From Escherichia coli (GTDB lineage: Bacteria; Pseudomonadota; Gammaproteobacteria; Enterobacterales; Enterobacteriaceae): a DNA stretch of 64,000 bases. Where the stretch lies: assembly GCF_003790525.1 (NCBI RefSeq), contig NZ_CP033635.1, one strand, 5' to 3'. Below are positions 53,801 through 59,800 of the stretch, piece after piece. Positions within the stretch are counted from its first letter, which is position 1, and each line of letters starts with the position of its first letter. A program made the position numbers.

Positions 53801-56800
53801 GAAAACCGTCACCACTACCGACGGGCCGATGGAATTACGTACTCCACCTGATCGTGATGGTTCCTTCGAACCACAACTGGTGAAGAAAAATCAGACCCGC
53901 ATTACCGGCATGGACAACCAGATCCTGGCGCTGTATGCCAGAGGGATGACTACCCGCGAAATTACCTCAGCCTTCAAAGAAATGTACGACGCCGATGTCT
54001 CGCCCACGCTGATATCCAAAGTGACCGATGCGGTTAAAGAACAGGTCTCTGAATGGCAAAACCGACCGTTGGATGCACTGTATCCCATTGTTTATCTTGA
54101 CTGTATTGTGGTTAAGGTTCGTCACAGCGGGAGTGTCATTAACAAAGCGGTGTTCCTCGCGCTGGGCATCAATACCGACGGTCAGAAAGAGCTGCTGGAT
54201 ATGTGGCTGGCCGAAAATGAAGGTGCAAAGTTCTGGCTGAATGTACTGACGGAACTGAAAAATCGCGGCCTGAACGATATCCTTATCGCCTTCGTGGACG
54301 GCCTGAAAGGCTTCCCGGAAGCGATTAATGCCGTCTATCCCATAAAGCCGGATACGCTCATTTTGGGCGGGATCTCCACAAGCATATGGATATGATCTGC
54401 ACAGCACTCAGCTTCAAGAATCCGTACACTTTTCCACTCACACAGCTTTCTCAAAATACTGCCTGTTGCTTTACGCTTCTCTCTGTAGAACACTTTTCTT
54501 CGGTATTTTGGCGCAAAAACTATGTGATATTTACAGTTCCATCGGGTATGCGCTAAGCTCTTTTCGTTCCCCATTGGGACCCCCTTTTGATTTCTTGTTT
54601 GACACTTGCAGTTGCCAGACCGCAAGGTGTTTTAACAAATCAAAAGGGGTTTTAATAACTGGCTCAAAGCTGAAAGCTTTCCGGCCCCCAGCCTAGCTGG
54701 GGGTTTTCTGTGCACAAAAATCCGGAAACGAGTGAGCGTTTCAGGATTCTTAAACAGACCCTGGATCGGTCAACTGCTCCTAAACTGATCGGCATTACAC
54801 CTGTCGGCTGCCGTTTTTTCAGCTCCGTGATCCATGGGCCGGGTTCTTTGGTCAGCAATGCTGCCGCCCTTGCCCCATGGATAAATAATGTCCGGTGGTA
54901 GGTATCCCCACGTTTGCTTATCCCCAGCATGCGAACCTTCCCAGCGGACCCCGTCTGCTTCGGCACCAGACAGACATAAGCGTCAAACTCACGTCCGGAT
55001 TTAAATGCTGAGGCCTCGCCCATGGTGGCGACCACCGCCGTAGCGATTAACGGCCCCACACCGGGGATTTCCATTAGGCGCTTACAGTTTTCGCTCTGCC
55101 GTGCCACGCTGTTAATCTGTTTATCAAGGCCATCTATCTGCATGCCCAGCTCACTCAGTCTGTTGTACTGGTATTCAAGCACAGTGATGAGATACGGCGG
55201 CAGGTTCGTCTTCATTCGCTCTAGGGCTGTCGGTAGCTTTCTGTCCATCGCTGTCCAATCTTTGTGGAGGATTTCACCAAACTCGAGGAGCGTGCCAAGG
55301 GTATTAATATGCGAGGTTCTGAACTTCACCAGTTGTCTGCGCGAACGGTGCAGGACCAGAACTGACTGCTTCTCTTCCGTTTTAACAGCGATATCTTTAC
55401 TGGGCTGCTGTACCGCCATCCAGATAGCACGCGCATCCATCACATCATTTTTGTTGCCCATGACGAATGCTTTAACGAAGCGAGCTTGCAACAGCCGAAC
55501 TTTGTGTCCCAGTTTTTTCCAGTTCCCTCGCCCAATGTTGGGAGCCTCCACAAGCCTCCATACCTATCAGACAGGGTTCCCGGTTGCTGAAGAACGTCAG
55601 AAAATCCTTGCTACGTAGCTGCTTGTCCACCACTTCGCCCGTGTACTCATTGATGAAGTGAACCTGAATCAGATACTTTGCGATATCAACGCCAACCGGT
55701 GTATATTTCATTTGTGGAGTCGCCAGTCTGAGGGCGCTTTTGCATCCCGTATTGGGCACTATGATGCCGGAAATCTGAGAGGCTCCACAGCAGACAATTT
55801 TACCCTTCATCCATCACAGTGCACCTCTCTTAACAGGGCAGGATGTGTTCAGTACATTTCTCCTTTTATGGTTACAGTTTATCCATCATGGCGTAATTGA
55901 AGGCTGTCGTGAAGGAGAGGAAGAGCATCTCATCACTTACAAACAAATACATTAATGATAACCATTTGCATTTGTATAGATTATGCTATAAAACATAGCC
56001 GTTGCTATGTTTGTTCTAATTTTGCTCACTATAGGTACTGAATTATGCACTCAATAAAAAAATTAACCATGCTCTTGGGGTTCCTCGCCCTCACCTGCTC
56101 GATCGCATTTCAGGCGAGTGCAACTGAAAAATTCAAGGTCATTACAACATTTACCATCATCGCAGATATGGCCAAAAACGTGGCTGGAGATGTTGCAGAA
56201 GTCTCATCCATAACCAAGCCCGGTGCGGAAATTCATGAGTATCAGCCTACCCCTGGCGATATTAAACGTGCGCAGGGGGCACAACTGATTCTCGCCAATG
56301 GAATGAATCTGGAATTGTGGTTCCAGCGCTTTTACCAGCATCTCAATGGTGTTCCAGAAGTGATTGTCTCTTCGGGTGTGACGCCAGTAGGGATCACCGA
56401 AGGCCCCTACGAGGGAAAACCTAACCCTCATGCCTGGATGTCGCCAGATAATGCTTTGATTTACGTCGATAATATTCGTGATGCGTTGATAAAATACGAT
56501 CCGGCAAATGCAAAAACATACCAACGTAATGCCGATACTTATAAAGCCAAGATTACCCAAACCCTTGCCCCCCTGCGTAAGCAGATTGCTGAACTCCCTG
56601 AGAATAAAAGATGGATGGTCACCAGTGAAGGGGCTTTTTCTTATCTCGCACGCGATTTGGGGCTAAAAGAGCTTTATCTGTGGCCGATAAATGCCGATCA
56701 ACAAGGAACACCCCAGCAGGTACGTAAAGTGGTTGATATAGTGAAGAAAAATAATATCCCAGCGGTATTTAGTGAGAGTACGGTTTCCGATAAACCAGCG

Positions 56801-59800
56801 CGTCAGGTTGCGCGTGAAACCGGCGCACACTACGGCGGTGTGCTCTATGTCGATTCCCTGAGCACAGAAAACGGCCCGGTACCTACGTATATCGACCTTC
56901 TGAAGGTTACTACCAGTACGCTGGTGCAGGGAATTAAAGCCGGGAAAAGGGAGAAGTAATGATGCAATCTGCGGGTATTGTCGTTAATGGCGTTACTGTC
57001 ACCTGGCGTAACGGGCACACAGCACTGCGCGATGCATCCTTCACAGTACCAGGCGGATCTATTGCCGCTCTGGTTGGGGTAAACGGTTCCGGAAAATCGA
57101 CGTTATTTAAAGCGATTATGGGATTCGTGCGTCTGACTACCGGAAAGATATCTGTTCTGGGTATTCCCACGCGGCAGGCTCTGCAGAAAAACCTGATTGC
57201 CTACGTCCCGCAGTCAGAAGAAGTGGACTGGTCCTTTCCTGTACTGGTGGAAGATGTGGTGATGATGGGCCGCTATGGGCATATGGGTATGTTGCGTATA
57301 GCCAATAAGAGGGATCGTCAGGTTGTCACCGATGCGCTGGAACGTGTCGATATGGTAGATTTTCGCCATCGACAAATCGGCGAGCTTTCCGGTGGACAAA
57401 AGAAACGCGTCTTTCTGGCGAGAGCGATTGCACAGCAGGGTGATGTGATCCTGCTGGATGAACCTTTTACCGGCGTTGATGTGAAAACCGAAGCCAAAAT
57501 CATCAGCCTGTTGAGGGAGTTACGCGCGGAAGGCAAAACGATGCTTGTCTCAACGCACAATCTCGGATCCGTCACGACATTTTGCGATTATACGGTCATG
57601 GTCAAAGGCACCGTCCTGGCAAGCGGGCCGACAGACACCACTTTTACAGCCGAGAACCTGGAGCTGGCTTTTAGCGGCGTACTACGCCATGTCACACTTA
57701 AAGGCTCGGAAGAAAGCATTATTACTGACGATGAACGCCCCTTTGTGGCTTATCGACCATCAGCGGTGCAGAGGGAAGAAAGATGAACGTGCTACTGGAA
57801 CCCTTCAGCTATGAATATATGCTCAATGCGATGTGGGTCGCGGCGATGGTCGGCGGTCTCTGCGCTTTCCTGTCATGCTATCTGATGCTAAAAGGCTGGT
57901 CGCTGATTGGCGATGCGCTGTCGCACTCTATCGTCCCGGGTGTTGCGGGGGCATATATGCTGGGGCTTCCGTTTTCTCTGGGGGCCTTCTTTTCCGGTGG
58001 ACTGGCTGCGGGCAGCATGCTGTTTCTTAACCAACGCACTCGCTTAAAAGAAGATGCCATCATCGGCCTGATCTTCTCGTCCTTTTTTGGCCTGGGGCTG
58101 TTTATGGTGTCATTAAACCCGACATCCGTAAATATTCAGACCATCGTCCTGGGCAATATTCTGGCAATCGCTCCGGCGGATATCCTGCAACTCACTATCA
58201 TTGGCATTGTCTCAGTCATAGTGCTCTTTTTCAAATGGAAAGATCTTATGGTGACCTTTTTCGACGAGAATCACGCCCGTGCTATTGGATTATATCCAGG
58301 AAGATTAAAAATCCTCTTCTTCACACTGCTGGCGGTATCGACCGTTGCAGCATTGCAAACGGTTGGGGCTTTTCTGGTGATCTGTCTGGTAGTGACCCCT
58401 GGCGCAACAGCATGGTTGTTAACCGATCGTTTTCCCCGCCTGCTCGTGATTGCTGTAACTATTGGCAGTGTAACCAGTTTCCTCGGCGCGTGGGTCAGTT
58501 ACTTTCTGGACGGAGCGACAGGTGGAATCATCGTGGTGGCGCAGACACTGCTGTTTCTTTTAGCATTTGTCTTTGCACCCACCCATGGGCTTTTGGCAAA
58601 TCGTCAGCGTGCGCATAAGGTGCTGGAGGATCGCTCATGATGGCATTATTACTGGAGCCACTGCAGTTCACCTTTATGAGTCACGCACTGCTGATTTCAC
58701 TGGTAGTTTCCATACCCTGTGCGCTGCTGTCGGTCTTTCTGGTCCTGAAAGGTTGGGCACTGATGGGAGACGCGATGAGTCATGCGGTTTTTCCTGGTAT
58801 CGTGCTTGCGTGGATACTGGGTTTTCCTCTGGCGGGAGGAGCATTCGTCGCCGGAGTATTCTGCGCGGTGGCGACGGGATACCTGAAAGACAACAGCCGA
58901 ATCAAGCAAGATACAGTGATGGGGATTGTTTTTTCTGGCATGTTTGCCGCAGGTCTGATCTTGTATATTGCAGTCAAACCCGACGTACATCTTGACCATA
59001 TTCTTTTCGGCGACATGCTCGGGGTAACCATCGGCGATATAATCCAGACGGTGATTATTGCCGGGCTGGTTACACTTGTTATTAGCGTAAAATGGCGGGA
59101 TTTTTTGCTGTTCAGCTTTGATTATCAACAGGCGCAGGTAAGCGGTTTGCATACGAGATGGCTGCATTATGGGCTGCTGTGCATGGTCTCTCTGACCATT
59201 GTGGCGACGCTGAAAGCGGTAGGTATCATTCTCTCCATTTCTCTGCTCATTGCGCCTGGCGCCATTGCGGTACTCCTGACGCAACGCTTTCATATTGCGC
59301 TCCTGCTGGCGCTCGGTATATCGGTAATGGTCTCAATGACTGGTGTATGGCTCTCCTTTTTTATAGACAGCGCACCAGCACCAACGATTGTTATCTTATT
59401 CACGGTTGTATTCATCCTGACGTTTACCGCTTCCAGCATCAATGCTCACGCGAAGGAAAATGTCGATCCACAGGATCTCCCGACTAGTACAACAACCAGA
59501 GAGCAACATCTGTAGGCACATAGCAGTCATGGAGACAATCTTGTGAAGTCATAGAGTGTCGGGGGAAGGTATTGAAAGTCCCCGACCTCCGAAGAAAATA
59601 TGGGCGGCATGATCAGGAAAACACCGTCAGCTCCTGTATAAAGTTATTTGTTGCCACCGTTGCCCAAATCACTCATATCAACAAACGGAATATTCAGTTT
59701 GAATCCACATTCCATTGTGGGCGTACGAATAGCATCAAGTTTTGCTGTATTGTCAACAACGGATGAAAAGTGGCACTTCCTTGGATTTACCTCTATATTT

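Follow-up and report, generated by a model that had tools for sequence, protein, structure and literature searches.

A rare, diverged sitABCD metal importer operon in a chromosomal island of Escherichia coli

Background

The sitABCD operon of Escherichia coli, Shigella and Salmonella, a homolog of yfeABCD, encodes a Mn2+/Fe2+ importer of the ATP-binding cassette (ABC) type that is known from both plasmids and chromosomes, is regulated by Fur and MntR, and is occasionally located on the chromosome together with the aerobactin genes. Repression of sitABCD by Fur and MntR in Salmonella is documented in PMC8970401 (citing Ikeda et al. 2005); for plasmid sitABCD, the presence of upstream Fur motifs has been reported (PMC3091784). 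According to Royer et al. 2023 (PMC10282060), sit and iuc are found at numerous places in the chromosome, iucA and sitA are rarely located there together (13 cases in 2302 genomes), and the two chromosomal genes are associated in phylogroup F. Here we analyze the sitABCD operon in a stretch of 64,000 nucleotides of E. coli DNA (contig NZ_CP033635.1 of the assembly GCF_003790525.1; hereafter, the window). This locus is not a new kind of system: it shares the four genes, their order and the overlapping gene junctions with the known sit operons, and very probably is a working copy of the importer, controlled by Fur and MntR, that represents a rare, diverged lineage residing in a chromosomal pathogenicity island.

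The annotated E. coli sit operons show 95% nucleotide identity to this one, with approximately 97–98% amino acid identity for SitA, SitB and SitC, and have the same promoter layout, with the Fur box preceding the MntR box. The differences are the end of an IS110-family insertion sequence (IS) element located upstream, a Fur box that matches the consensus in 14 of 19 positions instead of 15–17, and a SitD protein of 292 rather than 285 amino acids. The combination of sit and aerobactin genes is also known from the ColV/ColBM-type virulence plasmids (e.g., pAPEC-O2-ColV, NC_007675), where the two units likewise lie within about 3 kb of each other and are associated with IS1 sequence, in the order sitABCD, a 3.3-kb gap and iucABCD-iutA, all on the same strand. 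The gap holds shiF and eno, and copies of IS1 surround the pair (PMC4707298). The copy in the window, in contrast, is chromosomal; iutA rather than iucA faces sitD, shiF is located on the far side, and the spacer consists of IS debris instead of eno and shiF. Other sit loci, from extraintestinal pathogenic E. coli, are found at the ends of lambdoid prophages (beside uspF/ompN or at icd). These loci are chromosomal as well, and their operon and Fur/MntR promoter are orthologous to those analyzed here, but their conserved upstream sequence extends for at least 110 bp and they cluster with the plasmid alleles at 98% identity, whereas the present operon is linked to iuc, iha and sodC in an integrase-bounded island that adjoins ynjA.

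The sit genes and their products

The operon consists of four open reading frames (ORFs), all on the plus strand and with no internal stops:

56045–56959, plus strand: sitA, periplasmic Mn2+/Fe2+ binding protein, 304 amino acids, with an N-terminal signal-like sequence
56959–57786, plus strand: sitB, ABC ATPase, 275 amino acids
57783–58640, plus strand: sitC, permease, 285 amino acids
58637–59515, plus strand: sitD, permease, 292 amino acids

The junctions TAATG, ATGA and ATGA correspond to start/stop overlaps of 1, 4 and 4 nucleotides, respectively, as pointed out in an earlier note on this DNA that described all four genes as intact with overlapping starts and stops; such overlaps are consistent with translational coupling of the four subunits. 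For sitD, the description as intact holds with a qualification: the frame is open, but a 7-bp deletion between positions 59478 and 59479 alters the end of the protein, so that SitD consists of 292 amino acids compared to 285 elsewhere and terminates with ...DPQDLPTSTTTREQHL where other alleles have ...DLLSPN or ...DLLSSD. The change is confined to the last few residues.

A search of the NCBIfam profiles shows that SitB matches NF011630, the equivalog profile for Mn/Fe ABC ATPases, with a score of 586.6 bits (cutoff 393), and SitB contains the Walker A, LSGG and Walker B (VILLDE) motifs. SitA matches substrate-binding families of the Mn/Zn type, and SitC and SitD match the corresponding permease families. 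Yersinia YfeA aligns with SitA over the full length (E = 5e-125), and H64, H129, E195 and D270 of SitA align with the metal ligand positions of YfeA, namely H76, H141, E207 and D282, the His-His-Glu-Asp site of the cluster A-I binding proteins. Comparison with a prophage-borne E. coli allele, which is approximately 95% identical to the operon at the nucleotide level, reveals mainly synonymous substitutions, with ratios of nonsynonymous to synonymous changes (pN/pS) between 0.08 and 0.24 across the sit genes (0.08 for sitA and 0.11 for sitC). This pattern of purifying selection lends indirect support to the transport of Mn2+ and Fe2+ and the protection from H2O2 that would be expected of this family. 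The identical loci of the strains SFE8 and SMS-3-5 are annotated as sitA-D in RefSeq. Given the intact frames, the profile matches, the retained ligands and ATPase motifs, and the mostly synonymous divergence, the operon looks functional rather than decayed. In the transport cycle expected for this family, SitA would bind the metal in the periplasm, SitC and SitD would form the membrane channel, and SitB would hydrolyze ATP, the four subunits presumably being translated in a coupled fashion through the overlapping stop and start codons.

The promoter and its operators

Two operator sequences precede sitA:

55951–55969, plus strand: ortholog of the sit Fur box, ATTAATGATAACCATTTGC, 14 of 19 matches to the consensus, its first base lying within the junction with the upstream IS element
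55991–56012, plus strand: MntR operator AAACATAGCcgttGCTATGTTT, a perfect inverted repeat AAACATAGC-cgtt-GCTATGTTT

The MntR operator was overlooked in the earlier note. Within the window, this is the only match to the repeat AAACATAGC-N4-GCTATGTTT even when three mismatches are allowed (0.06 expected), and it is unchanged in all E. coli sit alleles that were compared. The half-sites are the same as those of the repeat located just upstream of mntH in E. coli K-12, the MntR operator of that promoter. In K-12, a Fur-like box also lies just upstream of the MntR box; the differences are that mntH encodes an NRAMP transporter rather than an ABC transporter, that the repeat has the spacer aaag instead of cgtt, and that the distance to the start codon is 12 nucleotides compared to 32 in sit. 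A text search of the literature for the MntR half-site returned no match.

The partial Fur-box match reported upstream of sitA is indeed present: the quoted string ATTAATGATAACCATTTGCA occurs once, at positions 55951–55970, and its first 19 bases agree with the consensus GATAATGATAATCATTATC at 14 positions. The credibility of this box comes from position and orthology, not from the score. In the five other sit alleles examined (those of the ColV plasmid, two prophages, a second island and a divergent Escherichia), Fur boxes with 15–17 of 19 matches occupy the same position, and in every allele compared the Fur box is located 21–22 bp upstream of the MntR box. The sequence from the Fur box to the ATG, including the MntR box and AT-rich candidates for the -10 element, is retained in the alignment of the alleles. 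These operators overlap or adjoin the predicted core promoter, so that iron-loaded Fur and manganese-loaded MntR would be expected to release sit for expression when both iron and manganese are scarce. A hairpin at the MntR repeat that was called terminator-like in the scan for sigma-70 promoters and terminators is an artifact of the palindrome and was rejected.

Chromosomal location and relationships of the allele

The source replicon, which the earlier note left to be identified as plasmid or chromosome, is a chromosome: the 64-kb window is collinear with the SFE8 chromosome except for two IS-sized indels. Positions 55800–64000 match E. coli chromosomes at 100% identity, and in 49 genomes the match extends over 80% or more of this segment; of the 72,556 plasmids in PLSDB, not one attains a coverage of 80%, nor does any show an identity of 99%. 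The operon has 53 full-length matches at 99.7% identity or higher, all from records of 4.9–5.8 Mb, and the four frames are intact in each of these genomes (99.7–100% identity). The arrangement is present in approximately 1% of 5426 complete E. coli genomes, and the lineage is rare also among the sit operons, with 54 of the 2639 sit-bearing E. coli records matching at 99% or above. Annotations of the exact sequence exist in more than 50 RefSeq genomes. These include SMS-3-5, a phylogroup F strain, which has the same neighbors and is one of the 53 operon matches. A 2008 genome paper by Fricke et al. is listed for SMS-3-5 (reference list of PMC4707298).

Pairwise nucleotide identities place the operon outside the known plasmid and prophage alleles:

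sit of the window versus the ColV allele (pAPEC-O2-ColV): 95.1%
sit of the window versus two prophage-borne chromosomal alleles: 95.1% and 94.9%
ColV and the two prophage alleles among themselves: 97.9–98.1%
sit of the window versus a fourth allele, from a GTDB representative labelled E. coli: 92.5%
fourth allele versus the ColV and prophage alleles: approximately 90%
iutA of the window versus plasmid and common chromosomal alleles: approximately 98%

A sliding-window comparison detects no segment in which the operon becomes plasmid-like. Because the identity to the ColV and prophage alleles is 95% whereas these are 98% identical to each other, the operon is an outgroup that represents a separate, older lineage by sequence, not a ColV derivative. 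The nearest relatives, at 98–99.2% identity (CFSAN061770 and EF5-18-41), occupy a different chromosomal island, which also contains additional copies of yebF, dolP and lsr genes. In that island, the operon is preceded by IS66 debris and a normal upstream promoter region and has a sitD frame of 285 amino acids; in CFSAN061770, sitD contains an internal stop. The fourth allele (NZ_JAATUR010000011.1, “E. coli” SCPM-O-B-8794) lies beside a uspF-like sequence. Its divergence points to deep allelic diversity of sit in the genus Escherichia. When one genome of each species was scanned for sit promoters of other genera, using the MntR box followed by GTTC, the single record returned was the Escherichia genome that carries this fourth allele.

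The upstream boundary

On the upstream side, the operon adjoins the remains of an IS110-family element:

54664–55810, minus strand: IS110-family transposase pseudogene, frameshifted, in fragments 54664–55551 and 55472–55810
55712–55940, minus strand: non-coding left end of the IS110 element, with the terminus at 55940 (...CATCTCATCACTTAC), delimited by alignment of four contexts
55941–55951: 11-bp junction AAACAAATACA between the IS110 terminus and the sit promoter homology, delimited by alignments and by the megablast boundaries, which fall at query positions 12–13

Homology to all other sit promoters starts at position 55952. In the plasmid, prophage and second-island copies, shared sequence continues for at least another 110 bp upstream, so that the break at 55952 is specific to this island; the idea that it marks the edge of a mobile “sit cassette” common to all contexts was rejected. 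Compared to the closest relatives, CFSAN061770 and EF5-18-41, the Fur box has one additional mismatch (GATAAT to GATAAC), and 1 bp is deleted between the Fur box and the -10 region. Two features are unique to the copy in this island, namely the truncated promoter with the weaker Fur box and the 7-bp deletion in sitD. In this island, the IS110-family element ends 11 bp upstream of the Fur box, and the ancestral promoter sequence beyond that point is lost.

As judged from the promoter sequence, MntR control and the core promoter are probably unaffected by these changes, but control by Fur may be weakened. A rearrangement associated with IS110 would, on this account, have remodelled the sit promoter and partly uncoupled the operon from Fur while leaving it responsive to MntR, producing a regulatory variant; we regard this as a speculative and rather unlikely scenario, and a shift of regulation towards manganese caused by the truncation and the weakened Fur box, conceivable as it is, is unlikely to matter much. 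If the scenario were correct, a regulatory variant of a virulence-associated metal importer would be fixed in a clade associated with poultry and humans in which sit, aerobactin, iha and sodC are linked on the chromosome. The truncated promoter can also be viewed as a small natural experiment on how much upstream sequence, and what quality of the Fur box, sit regulation needs.

Alternative explanations

Several observations weigh against a working, Fur- and MntR-controlled operon. By count alone, the Fur match is at chance level and is weak evidence: a Markov-1 random sequence with this composition would be expected to contain approximately 2.2 matches of 14/19 per 64 kb, and the window contains four separate sites (six hits when strands are counted). 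A simple scan for consensus sigma-70 promoters called none between 55952 and 56045, and the candidate hexamers, TTGCAT and TATAAA separated by 15 nucleotides or TTAATG and TATAGA separated by 17, are imperfect. Reduced or altered function is possible given the non-canonical SitD tail together with the missing upstream promoter region. One alternative is that the operon is a decaying passenger which, although its frames are open, is silent or non-functional, with a promoter truncated by the IS110 rearrangement and a frameshifted end of SitD. Such a reading draws on the loss of promoter homology at 55952, 11 bp from the IS110 end, on the Fur box being the most degenerate among the compared alleles with one spacer base deleted, on the altered tail of SitD, on the abundance of pseudogenes in the surrounding island, and on the internal sitD stop in one strain from the second island context. 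Decay is nonetheless hard to reconcile with four frames that are intact in 53 independent genomes at 99.7–100% identity, with divergence that is mainly synonymous (pN/pS of 0.08–0.24), with the retention of the catalytic and ligand residues, and with a promoter in which the stretch between the Fur box and the ATG has been kept, along with the MntR box and the AT-rich candidates for the -10 element; the change in SitD, moreover, affects only the last few residues. The decaying passenger is therefore an improbable explanation, and a functional importer is strongly preferred.

The other alternative concerns origin. The earlier note regarded this end of the window as an iron/manganese acquisition module of plasmid ancestry, and under this reading the sit-iutA end would be a piece of a ColV/ColBM-type virulence plasmid integrated into the replicon. 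The sit and aerobactin genes are neighbors also in the “constant region” of these plasmids, and the IS1 remnant between sitD and iutA is reminiscent of the IS1 copies that flank the plasmid module (PMC4707298); in addition, the island includes genes resembling those of plasmids or of integrative and conjugative elements (ICE), namely ProQ/FinO, ssb, PerC, ICE proteins and IS100. However, none of the 72,556 plasmids contains this arrangement or this allele at 99% identity or above, and the near-identical copies are all chromosomal. The allele stands at 95% to a cluster of plasmid and prophage alleles that is internally 98% identical, iutA is equally distant from plasmid and chromosomal alleles, and the close relatives at 98–99.2% are in the other chromosomal island (yebF-dolP...lsr), not on plasmids. 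Furthermore, the orientation of iuc-iutA is opposite to that in ColV, and there is no plasmid homolog of the spacer or of the sequence that follows sitD. With respect to the iutA-IS1 junction and the region downstream of sitD, no counterpart in ColV or other plasmids was detected except for two short stretches in the spacer between sitD and iutA, namely the 34 bp that follow the iutA stop and an approximately 55-bp fragment similar to an IS2 end. In the comparison with ColV plasmids that had been proposed as a check, synteny is thus absent apart from the proximity of sit to iuc. A module for metal acquisition next to iutA is supported, but its plasmid ancestry is not: given the chromosomal location, the outgroup allele and the inverted iuc, integration of a ColV piece is improbable, and descent within a separate chromosomal lineage of sit is the preferred interpretation.

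The main use of these results is in corrections for annotation and epidemiology. Because this lineage is chromosomal and distinct in sequence (approximately 95% identity), the presence of sit beside iutA should not serve as a marker of ColV plasmids, and typing schemes that distinguish “chromosomal” from “episomal” sit by polymerase chain reaction or k-mers may misclassify it.

The flanking elements and the island

The profile matches and the RefSeq annotation bear out the description of sit as wedged between an IS110-family element and IS1/ISL3 remnants, the IS110 gene being a pseudogene. The NCBIfam profile NF033542 matches both IS110 ORF fragments, over profile positions 69–318 and 2–76; the true start of the transposase is near 55711, and RefSeq annotates the equivalent of 54781–55711. 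In the identical SFE8 locus, RefSeq labels the gene “frameshifted; incomplete”, with the C-terminus missing. Because the gene is frameshifted and lacks the C-terminus, this neighbor is a remnant. The closest E. coli relative is only about 81% identical. The homology shared by four unrelated contexts ends at CTTAC (position 55940), after which the sequences diverge, and in CUVET19-1942 and p35A2a, homologs of the left end immediately precede IS110 transposase genes. The outer 78 bp (55863–55940) are similar to the left end found in a second group of IS110-family elements: they are 81–92% identical to a sequence that occurs about once per genome in approximately 270 other E. coli genomes and that is located directly 5' of a different IS110-family transposase gene in CUVET19-1942 and p35A2a, and about 820 bp beyond an IS110 left end in N51. 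From these alignments, the left end looks chimeric between two IS110 subgroups. The RNA fold of the left end is not significant (z = -0.62), and an Rfam scan of 54000–62500 for leaders, riboswitches and the IS110 bridge RNA detected only STnc490, an IS200-associated Hfq-binding small RNA (54584–54705, minus strand; 133.7 bits, E = 9e-28), which adjoins a truncated IS200 tnpA remnant between the IS256 and IS110 remnants.

Downstream of sitD, the following features were identified:

59778–59836: fragment of about 55 bp resembling an IS2/IS3-family end, the only match in the plasmid database to the sequence immediately downstream of sitD
59894–60506, plus strand: IS1-family transposase remnant, frameshifted, N-terminus missing, from the RefSeq annotation of the identical SFE8 and SMS-3-5 loci (coordinates mapped from the SFE8 locus record by adding 35799)
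60824–62040, plus strand: ISL3-family transposase pseudogene with a frameshift and an internal stop, from NCBIfam NF033550 and RefSeq
62105–64000, minus strand: iutA, ferric aerobactin receptor, convergent with sit, its 5' part beyond the window

The profile NF033550 matches the ORFs 60806–61162 and 61069–61773. The iutA region matches profiles of TonB-dependent siderophore receptors, and RefSeq places iutA followed by iucDCBA. The stops of sitD (59515) and iutA (62105) are separated by 2589 bp, in agreement with the 2.6 kb given previously.

The island spans at least 80 kb and is bounded on one side by a tyrosine integrase beside ynjA. Its content includes iha, sodC, shiF-iucABCD-iutA, ibrAB-like genes, ICE and plasmid-like remnants and many IS pseudogenes. 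Two segments of the window, 18395–19927 and 39555–42253, are absent or rearranged in the SFE8 island, which indicates ongoing IS turnover among the carriers. The best match to the Fur consensus in the window (15 of 19, GATAATGAGAATGATTTGC, 22374–22392) is located about 50 bp upstream of iha (approximately 20236–22323, minus strand), which encodes a siderophore receptor/adhesin; this site fits a second putative Fur-controlled gene of the island. The sodC gene, of the periplasmic Cu,Zn superoxide dismutase family, lies at 52159–52683 on the minus strand, 3.4 kb from sit, so that two functions related to oxidative stress are linked on the island.

Just beyond the end of the window, iucD is annotated in RefSeq as a frameshifted pseudogene in SFE8 (locus record 28533–29866) and in SMS-3-5 (17471 onwards). 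This means either that the island lineage is defective in aerobactin synthesis or that iucD is annotated wrongly; many iucD genes are mis-annotated (Royer et al. 2023, PMC10282060). Two ISL3-family pseudogenes with the same orientation flank the shiF-iucABCD-iutA unit on either side (25025–26241 in the SFE8 locus record, equivalent to 60824–62040 of the window, and 35866–37050). This arrangement resembles a composite transposon and could explain the inversion or relocation of the iuc unit relative to sit.

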